A program made the translations under genes and the position numbers. The notes below the pieces were generated by a model. That model was not told where the DNA came from and did not search any database. It saw only the letters and a list, made by a program, of their open reading frames with translations. A stretch of DNA of 64,000 bases. It comes from an uncultured Clostridia bacterium. Lineage in GTDB: Bacteria; Bacillota; Clostridia; Christensenellales; UBA1242. Where the stretch lies: assembly GCA_934756675.1 (NCBI GenBank), contig CAKVLG010000003.1:48768-112767 (forward strand), given 5' to 3'. Below are positions 11,066 to 30,120 of this stretch, in pieces; position 1 is the stretch's first letter, and every line of letters begins with the position of its first letter.

Positions 11066-11181
11066 AAATTCTCCTAAGTAAATACTTGTCAAAATATTTT
11101 TTTATATTCAAAATAATAAAAATCAATTTTATAAATATTTTACAAAAAAGTGCAAATACTAACATTGTAAGGAGTAAAAAT

Positions 11182-12600
11182 ATGAATAAAATAATAAAAA
11201 CACTAACTTTTTTAATTTTTATACTTGCGGTTGGTTTTACTTTTGCGGGCTGTGATAATGCAAGTGAAAGGAACGCAAAAGACTTGGATGCAACCATTAC
11301 ATCATTTATCAACCAAACAAGTAGCCTTGACTGGGCAGACAGTTACACTTTTGCAAATGCAAGCAGTGCACATTCTTCGCAGTCAACAACAAACACAACA
11401 ACAAGCACATCTAACACAAGCAAATATGTAACATACAACACATCTAGCATGCAAAACAATCTCACAAATGTAGAAAATAAACTTGGAAAGATTATTGCGA
11501 AAAAAGCAAGTATTGATACATATTTAAACAATCTTTCTAATGGTACATTATCGCTTTCTAGCGAGGATCAATCAGCTTTAAACGCTTACAAAAACATTAT
11601 TAAAGAAAGTACATCATATCTTGAATCAAATAATGGCACAATAAGAAATACTATGGCATTAATTACAAGTAACATTCAAGAAAATGCAAATAATAACATA
11701 ATTAATTCTTATATAATTAGATGCAACGAAATCATAAGTTCTCGTATGGCTAAAATAGATTCTGCATATTCTTCTATGGAAGCTATAGAAACCATTTTAA
11801 AGGCATCAAGTTCCACAAATGAACAAAAAACCGCAAATTCTACACAAAATAATGATAAAAATGTAGTAAAAACACAAAATAAAACAACAAAAACTGAAAC
11901 AAATAAAAATTTAAACACAAATAATATATCAAACAGCACAAACAATAACAATAAAAATAATACAACTAGCCTTATCGTAAATAAAGCACAAAATAGCACA
12001 AATCAAACTACAAATCAAACCAATAACGACACAAGCAAATTGACAAATAATTGGTCAACAACTAATCAATCTATCAAACAAAATTCTACGAGCTCAAATA
12101 ACGGCGGACAAATAACAAACACAACTACTACAAGTAACAATTCTAGACCTATAGCAACAAACAATAGTCAATCTAACCAAAATATAACAACATATCCAAC
12201 AATAAATAATCGTTCAATTTATTACGCAAGATACCGCAGATACCCTAACGGTTATTATGGTCCAGTTCCCACTCCTCCAAACAACAGTTCAAACAAACCA
12301 ATAATCACATCAACAAGTAACATGAATAATCAAAACTCACAGACTAACAATGTATCAACAAATTCACAAAACAACACAAATAACAATTATCAATACAACA
12401 AAATGAGCACAAGACAAAACTCTAACACAATTAGACCTAACTATAGTCAAAACAACAACATAACATATACAACAAGCATGAACAATCAAAACCATGGCAT
12501 GCAAGTTTCAAAAATATATAACACAAATCAAAATTCATCAAATAACTATTCTGGTCAAGTTGTGAATAACAACATACCAGCAACACATGTTCCATATTAA
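11182..12600 (+). CDS. Asn/Thr/Ser/Gln-rich lipoprotein, function unknown
   Basis: ATG 11182 has GGAG 7 nt upstream. Signal peptide MNKIIKTLTFLIFILAVGFTFAGC ends in lipobox FAGC. A helical-looking region of about 230 aa is followed by about 240 aa of N/T/S/Q low complexity. Confidence 0.6.
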   Translation: MNKIIKTLTFLIFILAVGFTFAGCDNASERNAKDLDATITSFINQTSSLDWADSYTFANASSAHSSQSTTNTTTSTSNTSKYVTYNTSSMQNNLTNVENKLGKIIAKKASIDTYLNNLSNGTLSLSSEDQSALNAYKNIIKESTSYLESNNGTIRNTMALITSNIQENANNNIINSYIIRCNEIISSRMAKIDSAYSSMEAIETILKASSSTNEQKTANSTQNNDKNVVKTQNKTTKTETNKNLNTNNISNSTNNNNKNNTTSLIVNKAQNSTNQTTNQTNNDTSKLTNNWSTTNQSIKQNSTSSNNGGQITNTTTTSNNSRPIATNNSQSNQNITTYPTINNRSIYYARYRRYPNGYYGPVPTPPNNSSNKPIITSTSNMNNQNSQTNNVSTNSQNNTNNNYQYNKMSTRQNSNTIRPNYSQNNNITYTTSMNNQNHGMQVSKIYNTNQNSSNNYSGQVVNNNIPATHVPY

Positions 12601-16322: not shown

Positions 16323-16397
<75 letters not shown>

Positions 16398-16405
16398 ATG
16401 TGTAT

Positions 16406-16490
16406 TGGTGGGAAGAGATGGATTCGAACCATCGAAGACGTAGTCGACGGATTTACAGTCCGTTGCATTTGGCCGCTCTGCAATCTTCCC
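16406..16490 (-). tRNA. tRNA-Tyr (anticodon GTA)
   Basis: 85 nt with a long variable arm. Anticodon arm ACGGA-CTGTAAA-TCCGT, T-loop GGTTCGAATCC, encoded CCA. Confidence 0.9.
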
Positions 16491-16532
16491 ATAAATGGAT
16501 TTTCATGTAGCCAGTACTGGGAACTGAAAATC

Positions 16533-16608
16533 TGGTGCCTCGGGGCGGAATCGAACCACCGACACGGAGATTTTCAGTCTCCTGCTCTACCGACTGAGCT
16601 ACCGAGGC
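16533..16608 (-). tRNA. tRNA-Phe (anticodon GAA)
   Basis: GCCTCGGTAGCTCAGTCGGTAGAGC, anticodon arm GGAGA-CTGAAAA-TCTCC, GGTTCGATTCC, encoded CCA. Confidence 0.92.
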
Positions 16609-16639
16609 TTAAAAGAAGGCCTCAAAAACTAGAATAAAG

Positions 16640-16716
16640 TGGCGACTCCAAACAGACTTGAACTGTCGACCTCCTGCGTGACAGGCAGGCGCTCTAACCA
16701 ACTGAGCTATGGAGCC
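16640..16716 (-). tRNA. tRNA-Asp (anticodon GTC)
   Basis: GGCTCCATAGCTCAGTTGGTTAGAGC, anticodon arm CCTGC-CTGTCAC-GCAGG, encoded CCA. Confidence 0.92.
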
Positions 16717-16723
16717 ACGAATA

Positions 16724-16800
16724 TGGTGGGCCTTCACGGACTTGAACCGCGGACAAACCGGTTATGAGCCGGTTGCTCTAACCAACTGAGCTAAAGGCCC
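16724..16800 (-). tRNA. tRNA with CAT anticodon (elongator Met; Ile2/lysidine type cannot be excluded by eye)
   Basis: GGGCCTTTAGCTCAGTTGGTTAGAGC, anticodon arm ACCGG-CTCATAA-CCGGT, encoded CCA. The paired 1:72 position argues against an initiator. Confidence 0.85.
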
Positions 16801-16828
16801 AAACGCCAGTTGCATCAGCTTGATTATA

Positions 16829-16905
16829 TGGTCGGGGTGAAGAGACTCGAACTCCCGGCCCCATGGACCCAAACCACGTGCGCTACCAAACTGCGCTACA
16901 CCCCG
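16829..16905 (-). tRNA. tRNA-Pro (anticodon TGG)
   Basis: CGGGGTGTAGCGCAGTTTGGTAGCGC, anticodon arm CGTGG-TTTGGGT-CCATG, GAGTTCGAGTCTC, encoded CCA. Confidence 0.9.
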
Positions 16906-16993: not shown

Positions 16994-18565
16994 TTAATCT
17001 ATTCCGAGATAATCATTATATGTTGTTTCTTTGTCATACACCTTAGTTTTATCGATCACAATAATACGATTTGCAACAGTCTGCAAAATCTCGTGGTCTT
17101 GTGAAGTGAAAAGCATTGGCGACTTATAATTAATCATACCTTTGTTAAGAGCTGTGATAGATTCTAGATCTAAGTGATTGGTAGGTTCGTCCAAAATTAA
17201 GCAGTTACCAGCCGTAAGCATGGCACGCGCCATCATACATCTAACCTTTTCACCACCACTAATAACCTTAGCCTTTTTATTACCTTCTTCGCCTGTGAAA
17301 AGCATTCTTCCAAGCCAGCCGCGAATAAATGTGGCATCTTTTTCTTTAGAATATTGAGCAAGCCAATCAACAAGTGACAAATCACAATCTTTAAAGTATT
17401 TTTCGTTGTTTTCTGGCAAATAACCAACTGTTACAGTAGAACCCCACTTAAACGAGCCGCTGTCAGCTTTTTCTTCGCCAACTAAAATCTTAAAGAGCAT
17501 AGTAATAACGTTTGCTTTATCGCAAAGAAAAGCAATTTTGTCGTTTTTATTGACAGTAAACGACACGTTTTCGAAATATCCTTTTTTAGTAAGGTTTTCT
17601 ACTTTCAATATATCGTTACCAACTTCCCTTTCTGGTCTAAAATCTATGTATGGATATTTCCTAGAAGAAGGCTTAATGTCTGCAAATTCAAGTTTTTCAA
17701 GTTCCTTCTTTCTGCTAGTTGCTTGTTTACTTTTAGAAGCATTAGCCGAAAATCTTGCAATAAATTCTTTAAGCTCAGCTGCACGCTGTTCTGCTTTTTT
17801 GTTCTGCTCACGCGCTTGCCTTTGCAATAGTTGGTTTGTTTCATACCAGAAATCATAGTTACCAACATACATATTGATTTTACCATAGTCAACATCGCAA
17901 ATATGTGTACAAATTCTATTTAAGAAATATCTGTTGTGCGAAACAACAATTACCATGTTTTCAAAGTTAAGTAAAAAGTTTTCGAGCCAGTTAACGGTTT
18001 TTACATCAAGATTGTTTGTAGGTTCATCTAGCACCAAAATATCTGGGTTCATGAAAAGCGCACGTGCAAGCAACACTTTGACCTTAACTTTTGGTTCAAC
18101 GTCACGCATAAGCGTATAAAGTAAACTACTGTCAACACCAATTTCCGAAAGCAAAGATTGCGCTTCACTTTCTGCTTCCCAACCACCAATTTCACCAAAC
18201 TCAAATTGAAGGTCTGCCATATGCATACCATCTTCGTCTGTAATATCTGGTTTAATATACAAACTATCAAGTTCGTTTTTTATTTCCATTAAACGTTTGT
18301 GCCCACCAAGAACAGTGTCGAGCACGGTTAAATCATCAAATGCATTTTGGTTTTGAGCAAGTATACTCATACGTTCGCCACTATCGATTGTAACGCTACC
18401 AGAACTTGGTTCAAGCTCACCACAAAGCACTTTTAAAAATGTTGATTTACCAGCACCGTTTGCACCAATAATACCATAGCAGTTACCTTTTTGGAACTTC
18501 AAATTAACTTCATCAAAAAGCACTCTTCCACCAAATTGAACTCTAACATTATTAACTACTATCAT
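16994..18565 (-). CDS. ABC-F family ATPase (no TM domain; translation-factor type)
   Basis: 523 aa with two ABC cassettes (GANGAGKST with LSGGEK-type signatures; Walker B LVLDEPTN and LILDEPTN) joined by a charged linker. The 5' UTR is short. Confidence 0.85.
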   Translation of the reverse strand: MIVVNNVRVQFGGRVLFDEVNLKFQKGNCYGIIGANGAGKSTFLKVLCGELEPSSGSVTIDSGERMSILAQNQNAFDDLTVLDTVLGGHKRLMEIKNELDSLYIKPDITDEDGMHMADLQFEFGEIGGWEAESEAQSLLSEIGVDSSLLYTLMRDVEPKVKVKVLLARALFMNPDILVLDEPTNNLDVKTVNWLENFLLNFENMVIVVSHNRYFLNRICTHICDVDYGKINMYVGNYDFWYETNQLLQRQAREQNKKAEQRAAELKEFIARFSANASKSKQATSRKKELEKLEFADIKPSSRKYPYIDFRPEREVGNDILKVENLTKKGYFENVSFTVNKNDKIAFLCDKANVITMLFKILVGEEKADSGSFKWGSTVTVGYLPENNEKYFKDCDLSLVDWLAQYSKEKDATFIRGWLGRMLFTGEEGNKKAKVISGGEKVRCMMARAMLTAGNCLILDEPTNHLDLESITALNKGMINYKSPMLFTSQDHEILQTVANRIIVIDKTKVYDKETTYNDYLGID

Positions 18566-20837: not shown

Positions 20838-22247
20838 CTATTCTTTTCCAAAAATTTTATCAATACACTTAAATGCAAGTTCACTATTTGCTTTGCCTTG
20901 CGTTTGCTTCATCACTTGACCCATTATATAGTTTTTAATCTTTGGGTCTTGTTTTAAGTCGCTTGCAAGTTTTGGATTTTTTGCTTTTAACTCTTCTAAA
21001 ATTGCAACTATTGTCTGCTCTGACACATCTGAAATAAGGTTGAATTTAACCGCAAGTTCTTTTGGATCGCCGCCACACTCTATTACCTTTTCGAGTAATG
21101 CAAGCCCGCTCGCTTTTGTGATTTTCCCGCTATCTACTAGCTCAATAATTTCAGTAAAATGTTTTGCACTAATTGCAAACTCTTTTTGCCCTTCACTTGC
21201 AAGTTTGAATAAGTCTGTTATTATCCAATTGCAAATCTTTTTTGGACTGTCGTATAAGCTGACGCATTCATCAAAAAAGTCGGAAATATATTTCTCGCTA
21301 GTTAATAGCTCTGCATCGATTTCTTTTATGCCTTGCAAAATGTATTTCTCGCGGCGTTTTTCTGGGAGCATTGGTATTGATTTTTTTATTTGCTCCACAT
21401 CATCATTTCTGATCTCAATTGGCAAAACATCTGGGTCTGGGAAGTACCTATAATCTTGCGACTCTTCTTTAGAACGCATGGCAAAGTTTTCACCCGCAGC
21501 ATCGTCCCACTTGCGGGTTTCTTGCATTATTTTGCCGCCACTTTCAAGAATATCTTTTTGCCTTTGAATTTCGTACTCTATCGCTCTTTTAACGCTTTTA
21601 AATGAGTTAAGGTTCTTCATCTCGGTACGCGTGCCAAGAATTTTACTATCTTTTGGTTTTAGCGACAAGTTAACATCACAACGCATGCCACCTTGTTCCA
21701 TTTTACATTCCGCCACGCCCGCAAAAACAAGAGTTTCACGCACTTTTTTCAAAAACTCTACAACTTCATCACTGCCAGAAAAAACGGGTTCTGTAACCAT
21801 CTCAATTAGTGGCGTTCCACCACGGTTATAGTCGATTAATGTACCTTCTAATTTTGAAATATGGATAAGTTTGCCAGCATCTTCTTCGAGATGTATTCTG
21901 TTAAGTAACTTTTTTTCGCCGTTACTTAAGCGTACATATCCACCTTTACAAATTGGATATACAAATTGTGAAATCTGGTAAGCCTTAGACAGGTCTGGAT
22001 AAAAATAGTTTTTTCTTTCCATTTCGGCATATTCACTAATATCACAACCAAAGCACAGCCCTGCCTTGATGCAAAGTTCAACTGCATGTTTGTTTAAAAG
22101 TGGCAAAGCTCCCGGCATGCCTGTGCAAACTGGACAGGTGTTTATGTTTGGTTTTGCACCAAACTCGTTTTTACAAGAACAGAAAATTTTTGTTTTGGTT
22201 GCAAGTTCCGCATGAATTTCTAGACCGATAACAACATCAAATTCCAT
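20838..22247 (-). CDS. gatB: Asp-tRNA(Asn)/Glu-tRNA(Gln) amidotransferase subunit B
   Basis: 469 aa. N-terminus MEFDVVIGLEIHAELATKTKIFC and C-terminal YqeY-like tail. Last gene of aspS-gatCAB. Confidence 0.92.
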   Translation of the reverse strand: MEFDVVIGLEIHAELATKTKIFCSCKNEFGAKPNINTCPVCTGMPGALPLLNKHAVELCIKAGLCFGCDISEYAEMERKNYFYPDLSKAYQISQFVYPICKGGYVRLSNGEKKLLNRIHLEEDAGKLIHISKLEGTLIDYNRGGTPLIEMVTEPVFSGSDEVVEFLKKVRETLVFAGVAECKMEQGGMRCDVNLSLKPKDSKILGTRTEMKNLNSFKSVKRAIEYEIQRQKDILESGGKIMQETRKWDDAAGENFAMRSKEESQDYRYFPDPDVLPIEIRNDDVEQIKKSIPMLPEKRREKYILQGIKEIDAELLTSEKYISDFFDECVSLYDSPKKICNWIITDLFKLASEGQKEFAISAKHFTEIIELVDSGKITKASGLALLEKVIECGGDPKELAVKFNLISDVSEQTIVAILEELKAKNPKLASDLKQDPKIKNYIMGQVMKQTQGKANSELAFKCIDKIFGKE

Positions 22248-23662
22248 TATTTTCTCTCCTTTTTAATTATTTTTGCCAGTTTATATATATTTCGTTCTGT
22301 TTTTGGCTTACCAATTAATTGCAAACCGAGTGGAAGCCCATTTTCACCTTTTGCATAATCAATTGAAAGAGCTGGCACACCGGCAATAGATGCTGGAACT
22401 GTGAATAAATCTTCTAAATACATTTGCACAGGGTCCGCAGCCTTTTCGCCAAGTTTAAAAGCCTCACCAGGCGTTGTTGGAGTGATAATAACATCACAGC
22501 TATCAAACGCCTTGTTAAACTCTTGTTTTAACAATAATTGCAATTGTTTTGCCTTTTTATAATAGGCGTCAAAGTATCCACTAGACAGCACAAAGTTGCC
22601 GAGCATAATTCTGCGTTTTACTTCTTCGCCAAAACCAGCACTACGGCTTTTTACATAAATATCATCAATTGTTTTTGCATCAGCATCACGCACTGCATAC
22701 TTAACACCGTCAAACCTTGCAAGGTTGCTCGCCGCTTCAGCTGGCGTTAGAATATAATAACAAGCCAAACTGCTAGAAATGTGTGGCACACTTATCTCTT
22801 TTATCTCTATACCTTGTGCACGCAAATCTTCTATTTGTTTTTTAAATAGTGGGTACGATGCAAGCGACTGTATTTTTTCTTTTAGTTCCTTGCATAAGCC
22901 CACAACAATTTTGTCCCTTGTTTGTTGACTACTAATTTTGTTATCAATGCTTGTTTGATCGTACTCATCTTTGCCAGAAATGATATCTATGACATATTCG
23001 TTGTCTTCTATCGATTTTGTAATTGGACCCGCTTGGTCTGTCGATGAAGCAAATGCCACCAAACCATATCTTGAAACAGTGCCATATGTAGGCTTTATGC
23101 CAACGACACCATTAAAAGAACTTGGCTGACGTATTGAGCCACCCGTATCTGTACCAATCGCAATTGGTGCAAGATCAAGTTTAACACTGACCGCGCTGCC
23201 ACCAGAAGAACCACCCGCAACACGTGACTTATCACATGCATTGAGTGTTGCACCATATACACTTTTCTCACAGCTACCGCCCATCGCAAACTCGTCCATG
23301 TTTGCTCTGGCAATAATAATAGCATCTTCATCGAGCAGTTTCTTCACAACAGTGCTTGTGTATGGCGAAACAAAGCCCTTTAAAAATTTGCTTGCACAGG
23401 TCATAGTTTTTCCGCCATACATAATGTTGTCTTTTATAATAACAGGAATCCCCACAAGCTTGCCACATGGAATGTCACCCTTTATTTTTTCATCAATTTG
23501 TTTTGCTTTATCCACGCAATCTGCAAACACTTCAATAATTGCATTATATTCTTTTGCCTTTTCTATTCTTTTTAGATAATACTCGCAAACAGCTGCAGCC
23601 GAGAGTTGTTTAGACTTAATTAAGTCTACCATTTCCATAACTGATAAATCTTTTATTTCCAT
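22247..23662 (-). CDS. gatA: Asp-tRNA(Asn)/Glu-tRNA(Gln) amidotransferase subunit A
   Basis: Amidase signature GGSSGGSA...GTDTGGSIRQP. Start at ATG 23662 overlaps the gatC stop (TAATG). The track ORF adds 10 N-terminal codons. Confidence 0.92.
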   Translation of the reverse strand: MEIKDLSVMEMVDLIKSKQLSAAAVCEYYLKRIEKAKEYNAIIEVFADCVDKAKQIDEKIKGDIPCGKLVGIPVIIKDNIMYGGKTMTCASKFLKGFVSPYTSTVVKKLLDEDAIIIARANMDEFAMGGSCEKSVYGATLNACDKSRVAGGSSGGSAVSVKLDLAPIAIGTDTGGSIRQPSSFNGVVGIKPTYGTVSRYGLVAFASSTDQAGPITKSIEDNEYVIDIISGKDEYDQTSIDNKISSQQTRDKIVVGLCKELKEKIQSLASYPLFKKQIEDLRAQGIEIKEISVPHISSSLACYYILTPAEAASNLARFDGVKYAVRDADAKTIDDIYVKSRSAGFGEEVKRRIMLGNFVLSSGYFDAYYKKAKQLQLLLKQEFNKAFDSCDVIITPTTPGEAFKLGEKAADPVQMYLEDLFTVPASIAGVPALSIDYAKGENGLPLGLQLIGKPKTERNIYKLAKIIKKERK

Positions 23663-23931
23663 TATTCCACCACCAATGGCACTTGAAAGCACCCGTCTTT
23701 CTTTTTTGGAGCATTCATAAGCGGATCAAAATCTTTTACCACTTGTTCTTTGTCATCACGAAGACTAGAAAGCGGAACAGCCTTTTTCTTTTCTGTTTGT
23801 GGAAGGTCGAGCTTTGCAATTTCGTCAACAAAATCTATTATTTCTTCTAAACTCTTTTCAAACTCTTGTTTTTTGCTACTGTCAATTTCAAGTTTGCTTA
23901 AATCTTCTAAATGTTTAATATCAATCTTCAT
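23662..23931 (-). CDS. gatC: Asp-tRNA(Asn)/Glu-tRNA(Gln) amidotransferase subunit C
   Basis: 89 aa with GatC-like sequence (LSKLEI...DFVDEIAKLD...LRDD), placed between aspS and gatA. Confidence 0.85.
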   Translation of the reverse strand: MKIDIKHLEDLSKLEIDSSKKQEFEKSLEEIIDFVDEIAKLDLPQTEKKKAVPLSSLRDDKEQVVKDFDPLMNAPKKKDGCFQVPLVVE

Positions 23932-23939
23932 AATAACTC

Positions 23940-25670
23940 CTACCTTAGTTTTATGTGTACTTCTCTTAGCTGTTTCTCCGAAACTTCACAAGGGCCGCCC
24001 ATCATAAGGTCTTGCGCCTTGCCCGTCATTGGAAATGCAACAACTTCACGTATGCTCTGTTCACCCAAAAGTAGCATTAACATTCTGTCAACTCCTGGGG
24101 CGATACCAGCGTGTGGCGGTGCACCATACTTAAATGCAGTATACAACGCACCGAAGCGTTTTTCCAACTCTTCTTTGCCAATTCCTGCAATTTCGAATAT
24201 TTTTTCCATCATTTTTACATCTGTACAACGCACCGCGCCACTAGAGAGCTCCACACCGTCAACAACAATATCATATTGATAAGCTAAAATATCTAATGGG
24301 TCTTTCTCTTGTAATTCTTCTAGCGAACACTGTGGCAAACTGAAAGGGTTGTGGCAAAATTCAAGTTCGCCAGACTCTTCACCAATCTCATACATTGGGA
24401 AATCTACTATCCAACAAAATTTATATACACCAGTTTCCTTTAAGCCCAACCTTTCGCCTACACTAGTTCTAAGCATACTTGCAAGCTTATAGCATAATTT
24501 TTCACTGCTATCTGCGATAATAAAAATATCATCGCCAACTTTGGCACCAGTGACTTTTATTAAGTCGTCACATTCTTTTTTAGAAATAAATTTGACGATT
24601 GGTCCTTTTAAGCACCCATCTTCTTCAAGTCGCACATATGCAAGTCCTTTACCACCACTAGACAAGATTTGTTGTGTAAGCCGTTCGTAAAAACTACGTG
24701 GCTGATCTTTTGCACAAACTGCAAAGCCTTCTACCGTCTTTCCGCGGAACGCTTCAAACTCACTACCATTAAACACTGAGCTCAGGTCAGACATTTCTAT
24801 TTTTATCCTAAGGTCTGGCTTGTCTGTACCATATTTTATCAACGCTTCGCGGTAAGGTATCCTTATAAAATGCTTATCTTCCATTTTGCATTTACCATAC
24901 TTTGAAAAGACTTTATAAAGCACTTCTTCTGTTACAGCAAAAACATCTTCTTGTGTCGCAAAACTCATTTCCATATCAAGCTGATAAAATTCTCCAGGCG
25001 AGCGGTCTGCCCTAGCATCTTCGTCCCTGAAGCATGGTGCAATTTGAAAATATTTATCTACACCAGAACACATAAGCAATTGCTTAAATTGTTGTGGTGC
25101 TTGTGGAAGTGCATAAAACTTACCCTTATGCAAGCGACTTGGCACCAAATAATCTCTTGCACCTTCTGGGCTCGAAACACTTAATATTGGTGTTTGGACT
25201 TCTTCAAACCCAAGCTCGCGCATATATACACGCAAGTCAAATAACAAATCACTCCTAAGTTTTAACATTTGTTGCATTTTATAGCTTCTCAGGTCAAGAT
25301 AACGATATTTGAGCCTTACATCTTCGCTTGTTTTGTAACCTTCTTCGATTTCAAAAGGCAATGTTTTTGCCCTTGATAATACCTCTAATTTTTCAATTTC
25401 TATTTCAATTTTGCCGAGCTTAAACTTTTCATCATAAGTATCTTCGGCACGTTTAATCACTTTACCTGTCACACTAATAACACTTTCCTTAGATAGCGAA
25501 ACAAGTAAACTATCGTCGTGTGTGGTAAGTTGAACAACGCCAAAACTATCGCGCAATTCAATAAAAACAATACCACCATGGTCACGAACTACTTTAACAA
25601 AGCCAGCGATTTGCACGGTTTTTCCAATATAACTTTCGTCCAAATCTTTGGCTGTAATTGTTCTATACAT
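23940..25670 (-). CDS. aspS: aspartyl-tRNA synthetase (bacterial type; non-discriminating activity inferred only from operon context)
   Basis: 576-aa class IIb aaRS with an OB anticodon-binding N-terminus, motifs FRDEDARADR and GAPPHAGIAPGVDR, and an insertion domain. First gene of the operon with gatCAB. Confidence 0.92.
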   Translation of the reverse strand: MYRTITAKDLDESYIGKTVQIAGFVKVVRDHGGIVFIELRDSFGVVQLTTHDDSLLVSLSKESVISVTGKVIKRAEDTYDEKFKLGKIEIEIEKLEVLSRAKTLPFEIEEGYKTSEDVRLKYRYLDLRSYKMQQMLKLRSDLLFDLRVYMRELGFEEVQTPILSVSSPEGARDYLVPSRLHKGKFYALPQAPQQFKQLLMCSGVDKYFQIAPCFRDEDARADRSPGEFYQLDMEMSFATQEDVFAVTEEVLYKVFSKYGKCKMEDKHFIRIPYREALIKYGTDKPDLRIKIEMSDLSSVFNGSEFEAFRGKTVEGFAVCAKDQPRSFYERLTQQILSSGGKGLAYVRLEEDGCLKGPIVKFISKKECDDLIKVTGAKVGDDIFIIADSSEKLCYKLASMLRTSVGERLGLKETGVYKFCWIVDFPMYEIGEESGELEFCHNPFSLPQCSLEELQEKDPLDILAYQYDIVVDGVELSSGAVRCTDVKMMEKIFEIAGIGKEELEKRFGALYTAFKYGAPPHAGIAPGVDRMLMLLLGEQSIREVVAFPMTGKAQDLMMGGPCEVSEKQLREVHIKLR

Positions 25671-25812
25671 AATTTTCTCCTTTTATAATAAATTTTAATT
25701 TTTTATTTTAATTTTTTATTTTTTAGTTTTATAATTTTTGTTATTTATTTCAATACTTTTCACGCCACAATTGGCGTTGATTTGTCTTTTTTCCATAATT
25801 TTCTCCTATTTT

Positions 25813-25851
25813 GAAAAATAAAAAAGCGGAACAGGTTTTCCCATTCCGCTT
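25813..25851 (-). terminator. strong intrinsic terminator in the aspS leader (attenuator terminator)
   Basis: Minus strand AAGCGGAATGGG-AAAA-CCTGTTCCGCTT is a 12-bp stem (2 G-U pairs) followed by TTTTATTTTT. Confidence 0.8.
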
Positions 25852-25876
25852 AACAATTCTTTTTTATCTTATTTAT

Positions 25877-25957
25877 TTAGCAACAGAAAAGGAACCCATT
25901 TATAAATGTGTTAGAATTGTTATTATTATTGATATTAGCTAAAATAATTCTAAACAT
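25877..25957 (-). CDS. candidate Asn-rich leader peptide (26 aa) MFRIILANINNNNNSNTFINGFLFCC
   Basis: Below the ORF-track size cutoff. ATG at 25957 lies 10 nt after AAGGAGG. 8 of 26 codons are Asn. Its own promoter is upstream and the terminator begins 25 nt after the stop. Confidence 0.55.
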   Translation of the reverse strand: MFRIILANINNNNNSNTFINGFLFCC

Positions 25958-25983
25958 ATAATAGCTTCCTCCTTTTTTGTTTG

Positions 25984-26012
25984 ATAATACACCCAAAAAA
26001 CTATTCTGTCAA
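25984..26012 (-). promoter_or_regulatory. sigma-A type promoter of the aspS-gatCAB leader
   Basis: Minus strand TTGACA-17 nt-TATTAT, starting 9 nt after the stop of the upstream ABC-F gene. Confidence 0.6.
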
Positions 26013-26020
26013 CCATATTT

Positions 26021-27652
26021 CTATTTTTTGTGTTCTTTGTAATAATCATAGTTGCCATAGAAAGGCGTGGCGTTTCCACCAGCGAACTCATATACTTTAT
26101 CTGCAAACTTGTTGATAAAATATCTATCGTGGCTGATAAATACAAGGGTTCCAGAAAAGTTTTCTAACGCTTCTTCCAAAATTTCTTTTGTTGGAATGTC
26201 GATGTGGTTGGTTGGCTCGTCAAAGATAAGCGTGTTTATATCTTTTTGCAAGAGCTCTGCAAGTTTTACACGCATTTTTTCGCCACCAGAAAGATTTTTC
26301 ACACGTTTATTAACGTCTTGCTTATAGAATTGAAAGCTCGCCAAAATGTGCCTTGCTTTTTCTTCGGGGACACTGGCTTCTTCGATAAAATGCTCAAGAA
26401 GTGTAAGCTTGTCGTTCTTAAACTCAATAATTTGTGGCATGTATCCAATTTTTACACTTGGACCAATAACAATATCGCCCGTAAATGGCAAATCTTGAGT
26501 TTCCATAACGCATTTTATGAAGGTGGATTTTCCACTGCCATTTTCACCAATAATTGCCACTCTTTCGCCGCGGCAAATTGTAAGACTAATGTTGTTTAGT
26601 ATTTGCTTTACCCCAGGCACCGAAACCGACAAGTTGTTTACTTCAATAACTCTGTTACTATTTTTGTTTTTCTCAGAAAACTTGACATCAAGTTTCTTTT
26701 TTACTTGTGGTTTTTTTAGTGCGAATTTACGCATTCTATCTAGTCTTGTTTGCAATGAATGTGCCATACCACAAAGCGTTGCGCTATTTTTTGCCATACC
26801 TTCGGCAGCAAAATATTTTATTTGTTCTTCTAGGCGTTTCATTGCTTTTTGTTGGTCTTCATACTTTGCCATTTGTATTTCAAATTCACGCTTACTTTCT
26901 TCTAAAAAGCCAGAGTAGTTTGTGTAATATAGCTTTGCTTCACCCGCATCAAGTGACAAGATTTTGTTTGACATTCTATCCAAAAAATATCTATCGTGCG
27001 AAACAATTACAGTTGCACCTCTAAAAGATTTTATATAACCTTCTAGCCATTCAATACGTTCAATATCTAGGTGGTTTGTTGGCTCGTCTAGTAAAAATAA
27101 ATCAGGCTTAATAAGTAAAGCCTTAGCCAGCTGCACAAGAGTTTTTTCGCCGCCACTCAAGTCGTTATATGAAACATTTAAAATGCTACGATTGATATGC
27201 AAACCAGAAATTACAGACCCGATTGTGTGGTCGATTTCATAACCACCTGCAGCCATAAACTGCTCTTGCAAGTTGCAATATTTTTGCAAAATCACATCAT
27301 AATCATTGCTGCCAATTTCTGCCAGCATTTTATCTTGCAATTTTTGCAAACGTTTTTCCATTTCGATTAATTCTGTGAAAGAACTTTTTAAAATTTCTAT
27401 AACCGTGCGACTATCATCTATACTCGAACCAGTTTGGTCAAGATATGCCACACGTGCATCTTTTCTTATATTTATTTGACCACTGTCTGCTCTTTCTATC
27501 CCAGCGATAATTTTTAAAAGCGTAGACTTCCCCGAACCATTTGGACCAACAATCGAAATCGATTCGCCATCATTGAGCGAAAACGAAACATTTGAAAACA
27601 GTTCGCCATAACCAAAATTTTTACTTATTTTATTAACATCTAAAACTATCAT
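26021..27652 (-). CDS. ABC-F family ATPase (long inter-domain linker; possibly antibiotic-resistance/ribosome-protection type)
   Basis: 543 aa with two ABC cassettes (GPNGSGKST, GENGSGKST; LSGGEK twice) and no TM domain. About 125-nt structured leader. Confidence 0.85.
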   Translation of the reverse strand: MIVLDVNKISKNFGYGELFSNVSFSLNDGESISIVGPNGSGKSTLLKIIAGIERADSGQINIRKDARVAYLDQTGSSIDDSRTVIEILKSSFTELIEMEKRLQKLQDKMLAEIGSNDYDVILQKYCNLQEQFMAAGGYEIDHTIGSVISGLHINRSILNVSYNDLSGGEKTLVQLAKALLIKPDLFLLDEPTNHLDIERIEWLEGYIKSFRGATVIVSHDRYFLDRMSNKILSLDAGEAKLYYTNYSGFLEESKREFEIQMAKYEDQQKAMKRLEEQIKYFAAEGMAKNSATLCGMAHSLQTRLDRMRKFALKKPQVKKKLDVKFSEKNKNSNRVIEVNNLSVSVPGVKQILNNISLTICRGERVAIIGENGSGKSTFIKCVMETQDLPFTGDIVIGPSVKIGYMPQIIEFKNDKLTLLEHFIEEASVPEEKARHILASFQFYKQDVNKRVKNLSGGEKMRVKLAELLQKDINTLIFDEPTNHIDIPTKEILEEALENFSGTLVFISHDRYFINKFADKVYEFAGGNATPFYGNYDYYKEHKK

Positions 27653-28596: not shown

Positions 28597-30120
28597 TTAT
28601 TTCATCATTTTTTTTACATTATCTGTACTAGACTTTTCCATCTTAAGTTTTAAGCCACTCTCAGATAAAGAATAAACATGATCACATACTTCATTTATAT
28701 ATTTTCTATCATGCGATACGCTAATAATTGTACCATCATATTCTTTTAAAATAGCACGAATGACAGGGTTCGACATTGGACTTAAATTACGTGTTGGTTC
28801 ATCTAATATTAAACAATTATCTTTATCAATAACCATTTTTAAGATATAAAGCTTTGCTTGTTGTCCCCCACTTAACTCGCCTATCTTATGCATCATTTCG
28901 TTTGATGTAAATTTACAACACCCCATCAAGGTATAGCAAAATGTTTTTTGTTCCTTGTTACCACCAGGACAAAGGAAATCAATTGGGTATTCTTCAAAGT
29001 TCATCATTTCAGAATAATTTTGTGGCATATAACCGACTTTTATATTTTCTTTTTGTGTCACATTTTTGTATATTTCTTTTAGAAGTGTTGTTTTTCCAAC
29101 TCCGTTTGTTCCAGTAATCACAACTTTTTGCGGTCCGACAACTTTTAACTCAATGTCATGCGACAACTCTTTATCTGGACACGACAATGTATTTAGTTGC
29201 AAATCACAAACAACTTTACTCTTAGGCATGTCAACTTCGTCAAAGAATAAACCTATAGCACTTTCGGTATCAACGTAATCTGGTAATCCTTTCTTCTCTA
29301 AGCGTTCACGCTGAGCCACCAGTCTACGAACAACTTTCTCACCAGCACCAGCATCTATTAGTCTTTGTATTGTGCTCATTTTTTCGTTGTATAATGTTTC
29401 TTGTGCTTTTGCAATTCTATCTTGATTTATTTGACTACGTTTACGCATTAGTTCGTATTCTTTTAGTCCACCTTTAAAAACTGTGTAATGAAATTCGTTT
29501 TTTCTTTTTAATTGCTCAAAATGAACAATCATATTTGCCGTGTTTTCGATAAATGTTTCATCGTGAGAAACAAAAATAACTGGAACATTACATTTTTTAA
29601 TAAAAGTTTCAATTACTTCAAGTGTTTGAATATCAACATCATTTGTAGGTTCATCAAATAAAAATATAGCTGGCGACATTTGTTTGATTTTTATTAGTTG
29701 TAATTTAACTTTCTCACCACCAGATAATGTTCCAATTAATTGATCACCGTCAAGCATGCTTGCTGGCAAACCAAATTCATGAAATGTACTCGCTATTTCA
29801 CTAAATTCATTGTATTTATCATAGTCAACTTCACTATCTGGGTTATCCTTTAAAAAATAATCTCTTATGCAATAATTATCCCAGCCATGATCGAGAAATT
29901 GGTGTAAATAACCAATTGGTTTTTCTATATTAATGTTACCTTCAACTGTGGCATAAGATGAGATATAATCTTTGTTAACTAATGCTTTGATAAATGTAGA
30001 TTTACCGTTGCCTTCTTCACCAATCAAGGCAACTTTATCACCTTCTTGCACAAGTAGATTTAGACCCACAATTAATTTTCTACCCTTTTTAGTGGTAATG
30101 TTTAAGTTGTCTATAATCAT
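28597..30120 (-). CDS. ABC-F family ATPase
   Basis: 507 aa with two ABC cassettes (GEEGNGKST, GTNGVGKTT; LSGGEK and LSGGQQ) and no TM domain. Lies 12 nt downstream of the GNAT gene. Confidence 0.85.
   Translation of the reverse strand: MIIDNLNITTKKGRKLIVGLNLLVQEGDKVALIGEEGNGKSTFIKALVNKDYISSYATVEGNINIEKPIGYLHQFLDHGWDNYCIRDYFLKDNPDSEVDYDKYNEFSEIASTFHEFGLPASMLDGDQLIGTLSGGEKVKLQLIKIKQMSPAIFLFDEPTNDVDIQTLEVIETFIKKCNVPVIFVSHDETFIENTANMIVHFEQLKRKNEFHYTVFKGGLKEYELMRKRSQINQDRIAKAQETLYNEKMSTIQRLIDAGAGEKVVRRLVAQRERLEKKGLPDYVDTESAIGLFFDEVDMPKSKVVCDLQLNTLSCPDKELSHDIELKVVGPQKVVITGTNGVGKTTLLKEIYKNVTQKENIKVGYMPQNYSEMMNFEEYPIDFLCPGGNKEQKTFCYTLMGCCKFTSNEMMHKIGELSGGQQAKLYILKMVIDKDNCLILDEPTRNLSPMSNPVIRAILKEYDGTIISVSHDRKYINEVCDHVYSLSESGLKLKMEKSSTDNVKKMMK

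Follow-up and report, generated by a model that had tools for sequence, protein, structure and literature searches.

A probable Asn-sensing leader-peptide attenuator upstream of aspS-gatCAB in uncultured Clostridia

The aspS-gatCAB operon in the window (the whole 64-kb stretch of DNA analysed) is probably controlled by a ribosome-mediated transcription attenuator that senses Asn-tRNA(Asn), as judged from sequence comparison and from modelling of nascent RNA folding. A sequence-only reading had proposed an Asn leader-peptide attenuator at this site, and the proposal is supported by conservation of the leader in related Clostridia, the lack of a T-box, the strength of the antiterminator pairing relative to shuffled sequences, the two states that emerge from folding models and the presence of Asn-specific T-boxes in sister lineages.

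Results

Organization of the leader and the downstream operon

The elements of the leader and of the operon, all of which are read on the minus strand, are as follows.

26012..25984, minus strand: sigma-70-type promoter, TTGACA (26012..26007), 17-nt spacer and TATTAT (25989..25984), matching 11 of 12 consensus positions
25974..25968, minus strand: Shine-Dalgarno sequence (SD) AAGGAGG of the leader ORF, followed by 10 nt and then the ATG at 25957
25957..25877, minus strand: leader ORF, 26 codons plus stop (25879..25877), MFRIILANINNNNNSNTFINGFLFCC
25936..25910, minus strand: predicted regulatory Asn run, codons 8-16, AAT ATC AAT AAT AAT AAC AAT TCT AAC
25899..25882, minus strand: predicted antiterminator strand, the conserved pyrimidine tract AUGGGUUCCUUUUCUGUU, assigned by duplex folding and conservation
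25851..25824, minus strand: intrinsic terminator hairpin, 12 bp (6 G-C) with the 4-nt loop AAAA, -16.9 kcal/mol
25823..25814, minus strand: terminator T-tract TTTTATTTTT, where the 3' end of an attenuated transcript is expected
25796..25716, minus strand: ORF2, a second mini-ORF of 26 codons, MEKRQINANCGVKSIEINNKNYKTKK, with its SD AGGAG at 25807..25803
23940..25670, minus strand: aspS, bacterial-type aspartate-tRNA ligase, predicted first regulated gene (NCBIfam NF001750, 732 bits versus a cut-off of 443)
23662-23931, minus strand: gatC (NCBIfam equivalog TIGR00135, above cut-off)
22247-23692, minus strand: gatA (NCBIfam equivalog TIGR00132, above cut-off)
20838-22247, minus strand: gatB (NCBIfam equivalog NF004012, above cut-off)

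The promoter, SD, start codon, 26-codon ORF and Asn run that had been read on the minus strand are all present at the coordinates listed, as is the 12-bp terminator with its T-tract, which lies 25 nt past the leader stop codon and folds with the stability given above. Transcription of the leader is predicted to start from its own promoter, which begins 9 nt past the stop codon (26023..26021, minus strand) of an ABC-F gene. Eight Asn residues are encoded by the leader ORF, seven of them inside nine codons. The 10-nt gap between AAGGAGG and the ATG is rather long in the window, a feature that counts against the attenuator reading.

The earlier assignment of the downstream genes as aspS-gatC-gatA-gatB agrees with the four NCBIfam equivalogs, all of which score over cut-off. 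The genes are contiguous and co-oriented, with identical order in related loci (L001, L002, L007, L011, L012, L024 and L084). By these equivalogs gatCAB (20838..23931, minus strand) encodes the Asp-tRNA(Asn)/Glu-tRNA(Gln) amidotransferase, and we infer that the AspRS of the window also charges tRNA(Asn). An exact-protein look-up with this AspRS returned no record. No tRNA-Asn gene was found in the window or in 15 loci, and neither asnS, asnA/B nor glnS was found among the annotated neighbours.

Conservation of the Asn-codon run and its surroundings

When all six frames of the window are read, the leader run is the sole stretch with at least seven Asn in nine codons; 30 dinucleotide shuffles contained no such stretch. 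Homologous leaders were found in 13 related Clostridia loci (L001, L002, L006, L007, L011-L014, L019, L020, L024, L084 and L085), each directly upstream of aspS, and together with that of the window these make 14 leaders from at least 10 species, with AspRS identities of 58-77%; statistics were calculated on the 12 that are non-redundant. The homologous leaders have 5-8 Asn per nine codons, compared with 7 in the window, and the pooled runs of the 12 leaders comprise 83 AAY, 5 GAY (Asp) and 0 AAR (Lys) codons. AAA accounts for 7.2% of codons in the flanking genes and AAY for 3.1%, yet neither AAA nor AAG occurs in the runs.

The window and 160 aspS loci (~2.5 Mb over the two strands together) were scanned for the combination of an SD, a short ORF with at least 5 Asn per nine codons and a terminator; there were 14 instances, every one of them immediately 5' of aspS. 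Only four other SD-preceded Asn-rich ORFs were present in the scanned DNA, and none of the four had a terminator. A scan of metagenomes added just two leaders. Because the Asn run is unique in the window and absent from the shuffles, and because its homologues always lie upstream of aspS, the leader element is, on these comparisons, not a chance outcome of AT-rich DNA.

Orthologues that preserve the hairpin and nothing else had been considered beforehand; what the 14 leaders have kept also includes the ORF, its SD and ATG, and the Asn run. Each has a promoter of the form TTGAC(A/T)-17/18-TAnnnT located 25-55 nt 5' of the leader ATG, an SD, a start codon (ATG) that shares the frame of the Asn run with no stop codon between, and a terminator (-10.8 to -17.4 kcal/mol in the relatives). 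The Asn run is the only conserved feature of the leader peptide, the remainder of which is variable. Since some close relatives (L003, L081, L082 and L083, with AspRS identities of 74-76%) retain aspS-gatCAB and have no leader, the leader is dispensable.

Competition between terminator and antiterminator

Variable stem lengths throw the helices out of register in a MAFFT alignment, so the antiterminator was assessed sequence by sequence, using duplex calculations and co-transcriptional (growing-transcript) folds. In the window the partner of the pyrimidine tract spans the terminator 5' arm, the loop and the uppermost part of the 3' arm (duplex -17.1 kcal/mol, z -2.55). The pairing of 25894..25882 with the 5' arm, as pointed out previously, is real, and it extends to 25899..25882, giving 17-18 bp. 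All 12 non-redundant leaders form a duplex that beats those of 300 dinucleotide shuffles (mean z -2.3), including L013, with 13 continuous bp at -15.8 kcal/mol, and L019, at -17.8 kcal/mol. A compensatory change is apparent in L001, where a G-C pair of the window (CUGUU/AGCGG) has become A-U (CUAUU/AAUGG). The tract is conserved at the nucleotide level, with relatives reading it in other frames or past the stop codon; it is, in the leaders compared, conserved as RNA, independently of the reading frame. The final Asn codon of each run and the start of the tract are typically 17-23 nt apart (12 nt for the window if the extended pairing is included), and across the leaders the stop codon either follows the tract immediately on its 3' side or precedes it by 0-8 nt.

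With a ribosome modelled in the Asn run, nascent RNA from 12 of 12 leaders had the antiterminator as its MFE structure up to the point at which 6-10 nt of the 3' arm had emerged. With the ribosome modelled on the stop codon, the antiterminator was lost or approximately halved and the hairpin took over earlier in 10 of the 12, the exceptions without earlier takeover being L006 and L011. The suggestion that a ribosome masks the tract at the stop codon and exposes it upon stalling in the Asn run is thus reproduced as two states in the ribosome-position modelling of these 10 leaders. The takeover measure was no better than that of shuffled tracts in L001, L007, L084 and L011.

In equilibrium folds of the full window leader the terminator formed in every state, with all 12 pairs, its stability being -16.9 kcal/mol versus ~-11 kcal/mol for the intramolecular antiterminator. 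With the intramolecular antiterminator the weaker of the two structures, the switch would have to work kinetically, in the manner of the trp attenuator. The comparison of folding energies proposed earlier holds insofar as both structures exist, whereas the equilibrium argument needed correction in view of these values (terminator ~-17 kcal/mol, antiterminator ~-11 kcal/mol). The models point instead to a co-transcriptional competition between terminator and antiterminator.

The pyrimidine tract of the window is also complementary to the SD of its own leader, a feature overlooked previously; this SD-tract pairing is part of the window MFE and is modestly enriched across the leaders (mean z -1.45). 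The first half of the leader, comprising the start codon, the Asn run and the ACACA motif, was also searched for a '1:2' pause hairpin; the mean z was -0.7, which is weak and non-significant, and no conserved pause hairpin is claimed.

These features suggest the following mechanism. Transcription would start at the dedicated promoter, and a ribosome would begin translation of the 26-codon leader. When Asn-tRNA(Asn) is ample, the ribosome would pass the Asn codons and reach the stop codon at 25879..25877, where it would cover the pyrimidine tract at 25899..25882; with the tract masked, the terminator hairpin (25851..25824) would form and RNA polymerase would stop in the T-tract (25823..25814). 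Under a shortage of Asn-tRNA(Asn), the ribosome would stall in codons 8-16 and leave the tract exposed to pair with the emerging 5' arm, loop and upper 3' arm of the terminator, such that the hairpin would come too late and polymerase would continue into ORF2, aspS and gatCAB. Readthrough would then supply more of the enzymes that make Asn-tRNA(Asn) via the indirect route. If no ribosome is loaded, the tract may pair with the leader SD instead, again allowing termination. Stalling, termination and readthrough at the leader are predictions of this attenuation model.

An attenuator that depends on a bound factor would share part of this anatomy. In that case the AAY repeat would bind an RNA-binding protein of the TRAP, HutP or PyrR kind, or tRNA(Asn) itself, and binding rather than translation would decide the outcome. 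The leader does resemble TRAP- and HutP-type systems, the anatomy of which consists of tandem triplet repeats upstream of a terminator/antiterminator pair, and by folding both of these structures are real. However, protein binding requires neither the SD and in-frame ATG without an intervening stop (14 of 14 leaders), nor the placement of the stop codon at the antiterminator strand, nor repeats made up of contiguous codons whose third base is always Y, and no candidate regulator gene is conserved beside the element. We consider a factor-dependent switch very improbable.

T-boxes in sister lineages

The view that the leader region has no T-box is upheld by covariance-model search: the Rfam T-box model (RF00230) gave no match in 25600..26100, either at the gathering score or at E<=10. 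No Rfam family matched the leader region at its gathering score; among the leader-peptide families the best was Phe_leader (15.4 bits versus a gathering score of 55, E=7.7), and compared with the Rfam leader families the window leader has no sequence or covariance-model similarity.

Sister lineages (L015, L018, L023, L026-L029 and L032) carry a T-box on aspS-gatCAB with the specifier AAC, i.e. Asn, and these T-boxes score 122-150 bits with the Rfam model; specifier codons were interpreted only for T-boxes with gatCAB downstream. On the loci compared, the leader peptide is an evolutionary alternate of the Asn T-box on aspS-gatCAB. That sister lineages place an Asn-specifier T-box at the same position of the same operon corroborates the logic proposed for the attenuator. 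The same T-box, lying on the orthologous operon, lends indirect weight to the view that the AspRS of the window may be non-discriminating. In Firmicutes, exchange between T-box and leader peptide on aminoacyl-tRNA synthetase genes has been documented for His (PMC2965389).

The T-boxes also bear on whether the leader could be a general sensor of translation stress or antibiotics, of the erm or ABC-F leader type, in which any slow-down would cause readthrough and the Asn codons would be incidental. Three ABC-F paralogues are present in the window, one of which adjoins the leader upstream, and leader-ORF attenuators respond to stalling of any kind. However, the element is always 5' of aspS and never of an ABC-F gene, the linkage to ABC-F is not conserved among relatives, the Asn run is the one feature of an otherwise varying peptide that has been kept, and the T-boxes at the same position in sister lineages are specific for Asn. 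A general stress sensor is very improbable in our estimation. An antibiotic-type leader tied to the adjacent ABC-F gene was considered separately and was rejected on the grounds that the synteny is not conserved.

ORF2 between the terminator and aspS

In the window the terminator and aspS lie about 150 nt apart, an interval that contains ORF2. ORF2, which had escaped notice in the sequence-only reading, has a strong SD right after the T-tract, and an Asn/Asp codon abuts an in-frame GCC...GGC hairpin within it (25777..25762, minus strand). L001, L002, L007, L084 and L024 share this ORF together with its [N/D]-A-x-x-G hairpin frame. The hairpin loop is GUU in four lineages and GUC in one.

GUU and GUC are the anticodons of tRNA-Asn and tRNA-Asp, respectively.

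The distance from the terminator to aspS is relevant to a further possibility, namely that the terminator is a constitutive insulator against read-through from the ABC-F gene, or belongs to a small-RNA or small-peptide gene, with aspS being transcribed from its own downstream promoter and the Asn ORF having no regulatory role. The ~150-nt interval, the weak promoter-like sites that a promoter scan detects in the region and the retention of the terminator in equilibrium folding are all in keeping with such an arrangement. In L011, L012, L019 and L020, however, the aspS SD lies within 15-40 nt of the terminator and there is therefore no room for a second promoter. Whichever gene lies upstream, moreover, every lineage provides the leader with a consensus promoter of its own, and insulation leaves the conserved antiterminator and the position of the stop codon unexplained; we regard insulation as highly unlikely.

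A more elaborate form of the attenuator model is doubtful, albeit worth stating: control might be two-tiered, with the leader as a first tier that displaced the Asn T-box for a functional reason and ORF2 as a further, undescribed checkpoint. Under such control, ORF2 might act through a ribosome-dependent structure, or as an AspRS-bound mimic of an anticodon arm, like the E. coli thrS operator. In this scheme, usable Asn-tRNA(Asn) can be told from mischarged Asp-tRNA(Asn) solely by a ribosome that is translating and supplied by EF-Tu, and because the ribosome separates the two, the leader peptide would sense a shortfall whether it arose at AspRS or at GatCAB.

Discussion

Leader-peptide attenuation is a textbook mechanism with a small repertoire (Trp, His, Phe, Leu, Thr, Ile/Val and, recently, Cys), and the attenuators are mostly proteobacterial or actinobacterial. 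Like the leaders trpL, hisL, pheL, leuL, thrL and ivbL/ilvL of E. coli, the leader described here combines a brief ORF behind an SD, in which codons for the (predicted) sensed amino acid are clustered, with an intrinsic terminator overlapped by an antiterminator, the 5' strand of which would be masked by a ribosome at the stop codon. It also resembles them in having a terminator more stable than the antiterminator, hence kinetic control, which in our case is a result of modelling; for the trp attenuator the values are ~-20 kcal/mol for the terminator and -12 kcal/mol for the antiterminator. By contrast with leaders of the trpL type, the window leader comes from uncultured Clostridia, is predicted to sense Asn and to control an aminoacyl-tRNA synthetase-amidotransferase operon rather than a biosynthetic one; it has no clear 1:2 pause hairpin, and its antiterminator strand can pair with the SD.

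Control of an aminoacyl-tRNA synthetase gene by a leader peptide would be shared with the E. coli pheST leader (pheM) and with the His leader peptide found upstream of hisS paralogues and hisZ in Bacilli (Naville & Gautheret 2010, PMC2965389). The Bacillus His leader is, as here, a Firmicute leader peptide in the place of a T-box. These leaders encode Phe or His rather than Asn and have no evident sequence relationship with the present one. A further difference is that the synthetase predicted to be regulated here is not named for the sensed amino acid; AspRS and GatCAB would jointly make Asn-tRNA(Asn). Outside Proteobacteria, short ORFs rich in the sensed amino acid also control operons in the ilv-leu leader-peptide attenuators of S. 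aureus and Listeria (PMC5794164, PMC5864092) and in the mycobacterial poly-Cys uORFs, which are leaderless and have no comparable intrinsic-terminator switch (bioRxiv 10.1101/834739); both differ from the window leader in amino acid and target. We found no described Asn leader-peptide attenuator in the literature searched, absence from which is no proof of absence; its Asn specificity and its aspS-gatCAB target do not appear to have been described so far.

A functional counterpart is the Asn-specific T-box on aspS-gatCAB of Clostridium acetobutylicum (Saad et al. 2012, J Biol Chem 287:20382, cited in PMC4206432). As far as that citing account goes, the two have in common the type of operon, the position in the 5' leader, the sensing of tRNA-Asn charging and the terminator/antiterminator output; they differ in the sensor, direct binding of uncharged tRNA by the RNA of the T-box as against the predicted reading of Asn codons by a translating ribosome in the window leader. 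A T-box would read any aminoacylated tRNA(Asn) as charged, whereas a ribosome would respond only to usable Asn-tRNA(Asn). This suggests a testable difference between the two sensors, i.e. that the ribosome senses the final Asn-tRNA(Asn), whereas the T-box cannot separate this product from mischarged Asp-tRNA(Asn).

If the attenuator operates as proposed, it would add to the leader-peptide repertoire an amide amino acid whose synthesis in many bacteria occurs exclusively on tRNA, and its ~190 nt would constitute a compact, portable Asn-responsive genetic part. The alternation of T-box and leader peptide on one operon would provide a clean natural case, useful for studies on the exchange of RNA sensors. 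The leader would, in addition, supply a rule by which a clade of uncultured Clostridia from gut and rumen can be annotated.

Results

Anatomy of the leader and its Asn run

The sequence-only reading had placed a near-consensus promoter, an SD-preceded ATG opening a 26-codon ORF and a 12-bp terminator upstream of aspS-gatC-gatA-gatB; all were recovered, as listed here (SD, Shine-Dalgarno sequence).

26012..25984, minus strand: promoter TTGACA-17-TATTAT, 11/12 consensus positions
25974..25968, minus strand: SD AAGGAGG, 10 nt 5' of the ATG at 25957
25957..25877, minus strand: leader ORF MFRIILANINNNNNSNTFINGFLFCC, 26 codons, ATG at 25957, stop at 25879..25877
25899..25882, minus strand: pyrimidine tract (proposed antiterminator strand)
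25851..25824, minus strand: 12-bp terminator hairpin, then TTTTATTTTT; -16.9 kcal/mol
Flanking genes (NCBIfam matches): aspS, gatC, gatA and gatB downstream, ABC-F ATPase upstream

The proposed lack of a T-box also holds: in an Rfam search of the leader region neither a T-box nor any other family came up, whether the gathering score was applied or the cut-off was relaxed to E<=10.

The Asn-codon run is real: over six frames, the leader contains the sole 9-codon stretch with at least seven Asn in the 64-kb window, and none arose in 30 dinucleotide-preserving shuffles of it, so the run is not a by-product of the 34% G+C. Codons inside the runs of the leaders, including those of relatives (below), comprise 52 AAT, 31 AAC and 5 GAY (Asp), with no AAA or AAG; given that AAA is the commoner in flanking genes (7.2% of codons vs 3.1% for AAY), this composition places the selection on Asn decoding rather than A-richness. 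Asp accounts for five of the 12 non-Asn codons (three of them in one related locus, L002), which is compatible with the enzyme also making Asp-tRNA(Asp). Most other Asn-dense 9-codon stretches of the window lie in a 504-aa ORF (11086..12600, plus strand) with several Asn/Gln/Thr/Ser-rich low-complexity stretches.

Conservation across relatives

An AspRS-based scan, with one genome per species, gave 80 loci (L numbers), mostly from uncultured gut/rumen Clostridia MAGs. Searching both strands of all loci for an SD and short ORF with at least five Asn in nine codons, and a terminator no more than 80 nt away, yielded 12 leaders including that of the window (W), each immediately 5' of aspS; Asn-rich ORFs with an SD were otherwise found only three times, all without a terminator, and a looser scan that required neither SD nor start codon recovered the same loci. 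A metagenome collection (0.66 Mb of extra sequence) added two leaders (L084, L085) and one terminator-less ORF. The survey of relatives that the sequence-only reading had proposed thus returned 14 leaders, all directly upstream of aspS, with peptides including the following.

MIRVCLINNNNNNNDNNTLYLMRPFSIVC, MVGVLFNNFNNNNNCTF, MFTFAVLANNNNNNNANTLNIMGSFSIVRN, MDKQNNQNNNNLSRDIF, MTKVILVNDNNNNNFFVTQ
MFTVLTNNNNNNNIIITQ, MVKVMVNNNNNNNFFVTQ, MVIIVLNNNNNNNFELTQ, MIFVNINNNNNNNSSNFTN, MFKIFANNNNNNNANTLNIMGSFSIVIK

All 14 have a promoter, TTGAC(A/T) and TAnnnT separated by 17-18 nt and in most cases accompanied by an extended TG, 25-55 nt 5' of the SD-preceded ATG. In L013, L014, L019, L020 and L085 the leader precedes a lone aspS, gatCAB being absent within 3 kb.

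The closest relatives (L003, L081, L082, L083; 74-76% AspRS identity) keep aspS-gatCAB and have neither leader nor T-box; upstream of aspS, L083 carries two similar A/T-rich hairpin elements, GGGAAAAC-T7-GAAAAAAGTGTTACC and GGAAAAATCTTTTTATAAAAAGTTTTTCC. In two Candidatus Onthoplasma-like MAGs (L004, L005) the order is inverted, gatA-gatB-aspS, with gatB ending ~20 nt before aspS, and any leader would sit upstream of gatC, beyond the DNA examined. In a clade with neither leader nor T-box (L017, L021, L022, L025), a divergent 23S rRNA gene has its 5' end a few kb from aspS.

The pyrimidine tract and its predicted pairing

A pyrimidine tract, consensus UGGGUUYCUUUUCU, lies 3' of the Asn run in all leaders, typically starting 17-23 nt past the run's final Asn codon. 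The frame in which it is translated varies (NGFLFCC in the window, MGSFSIV in L007), and in L006, L011, L013, L014, L019 and L020 it falls beyond the stop codon, implying conservation as RNA. The stop codon is just 3' of the tract in W, L001, L002, L007 and L084, and 0-8 nt 5' of it in L006, L011, L013, L014 and L020.

The proposed antiterminator pairing is borne out by predicted energies: the duplex of tract and terminator hairpin beats 300 dinucleotide shuffles in 12/12 non-redundant leaders (mean z -2.3), and in the window (-17.1 kcal/mol) engages the 5' arm, loop and top of the 3' arm. A continuous helix of at least 13 bp spans the top of the 5' arm, loop and 3' arm in L013, L019 and L020, and there is one clear compensatory change, from G-C (window, L006) to A-U (L001, L002).

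After the Asn run, all leaders but L011/L012 share (A)ACACA(A/U)U, with an in-frame Thr codon ACA (window 25907..25913), for which no pairing partner was identified. CAA-TAA (stop) follows it in a distant subgroup; in the window's subgroup the ORF runs on across the tract.

Modelled two-state folding

Of the two competing structures the antiterminator is the weaker: equilibrium folds of the complete leader always keep the terminator, the tract pairing with the SD, and the intramolecular antiterminator reaches ~-11 vs -16.9 kcal/mol for the terminator. These energies require a kinetic switch like that of the trp attenuator, where the antiterminator is about -12 and the terminator about -20.

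Such a switch is supported by minimum free energy (MFE) snapshots of the growing transcript, with a ribosome footprint on the middle Asn codon or on the stop codon. In the former case, the antiterminator is predicted to be the MFE structure until 6-10 nt of the 9-15-nt 3' arm are out (12/12 leaders), and in L002 even with the full hairpin. In the latter, it is abolished in W, L001, L007 and L084 and roughly halved elsewhere, and the hairpin takes over earlier in 10/12 leaders (exceptions L006, L011). The takeover point lies beyond that of shuffled tracts (fraction <=0.05) in 8/12 leaders. A conserved pause/protector hairpin was looked for in the leaders and not established.

Neighbourhood of the leader

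A second mini-ORF, ORF2 (25796..25716; 25716..25807 including SD, minus strand), follows the terminator; it has a strong SD, AGGAG, immediately 3' of the T-tract. Counterparts between terminator and aspS occur in L001, L002, L007, L084 and L024, and are absent from L006, L011-L014, L019 and L020. The peptides share [N/D]-A-x-x-G, the Ala-GCC and Gly-GGC codons forming a GC-rich hairpin in constant frame; four lineages have GUU within its loop, L084 has GUC and the window has neither of these, and a U-rich run is present on the antisense strand, with no U-tract 3' on the sense strand.

Three ABC-F ATPase paralogues lie within 13 kb (16994..18565, 26021..27652 and 28597..30120, all minus strand), two scoring as 'ribosomal protection-like ABC-F', the third as PRK15064-type. 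Just 9 nt, holding no terminator, separate the end of one paralogue from the leader promoter. The genes for six tRNAs (Thr, Tyr, Phe, Asp, Met, Pro; 16323..16905, minus strand) are clustered between cls and an ABC-F gene, and the window contains no tRNA-Asn gene.

Discussion

The proposal of a ribosome-mediated Asn attenuator is supported by leader conservation, predicted tract pairing, modelled two-state folds and the Asn T-boxes of sister lineages, and we consider it likely that the leader attenuates transcription through a translating ribosome that senses Asn-tRNA(Asn). A ribosome arriving at the stop codon would cover the tract and let the terminator form; one stalled at the Asn codons would leave the tract free to act as antiterminator. 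In L015, L018, L023, L026-L029 and L032 a T-box (122-150 bits) precedes aspS-gatCAB, about 60-300 nt upstream of aspS, with the specifier GAA(N)AAC-A, an Asn codon, seen directly in five Rfam alignments and by pattern in 8/8 loci. These T-boxes provide independent functional corroboration of the leader reading, and an Asn-specific T-box on aspS-gatCAB is reported for Clostridium acetobutylicum (Saad et al. 2012, as cited in PMC4206432). The sister T-box occupies the position that the leader ORF has in the window's clade.

In an AspRS neighbour-joining tree, leader-bearing lineages form three clades, the Asn-T-box clade being sister to the L011/L012/L024 leader clade, and the leader-less L003, L081 and L083 nest within the window's clade. 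Because all leaders share the tract and a GGRAAAACC terminator apex, and all but L011/L012 the ACA codon, they appear from these sequence features to be homologous; together with the sister T-boxes, this implies that two sensor types alternate on one operon.

The pheST leader is a classical example of a leader peptide on an aaRS operon. The window leader shares function and anatomy with the trpL/hisL/pheM class, and no existing sequence family matches it. For His, leader peptides in place of T-boxes on Firmicutes aaRS genes are already documented (PMC2965389), and our full-text literature search turned up neither a leader attenuator built on Asn codons nor this kind of control on aspS-gatCAB. 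The Asn leader is thus a comparative-genomics finding that would add a new member to a known class, not a new principle. A ribosome-based sensor would respond to usable Asn-tRNA(Asn) alone, a product that a T-box would not distinguish from mischarged Asp-tRNA(Asn); this discrimination may be the reason for the fit between a leader peptide and the two-step pathway.
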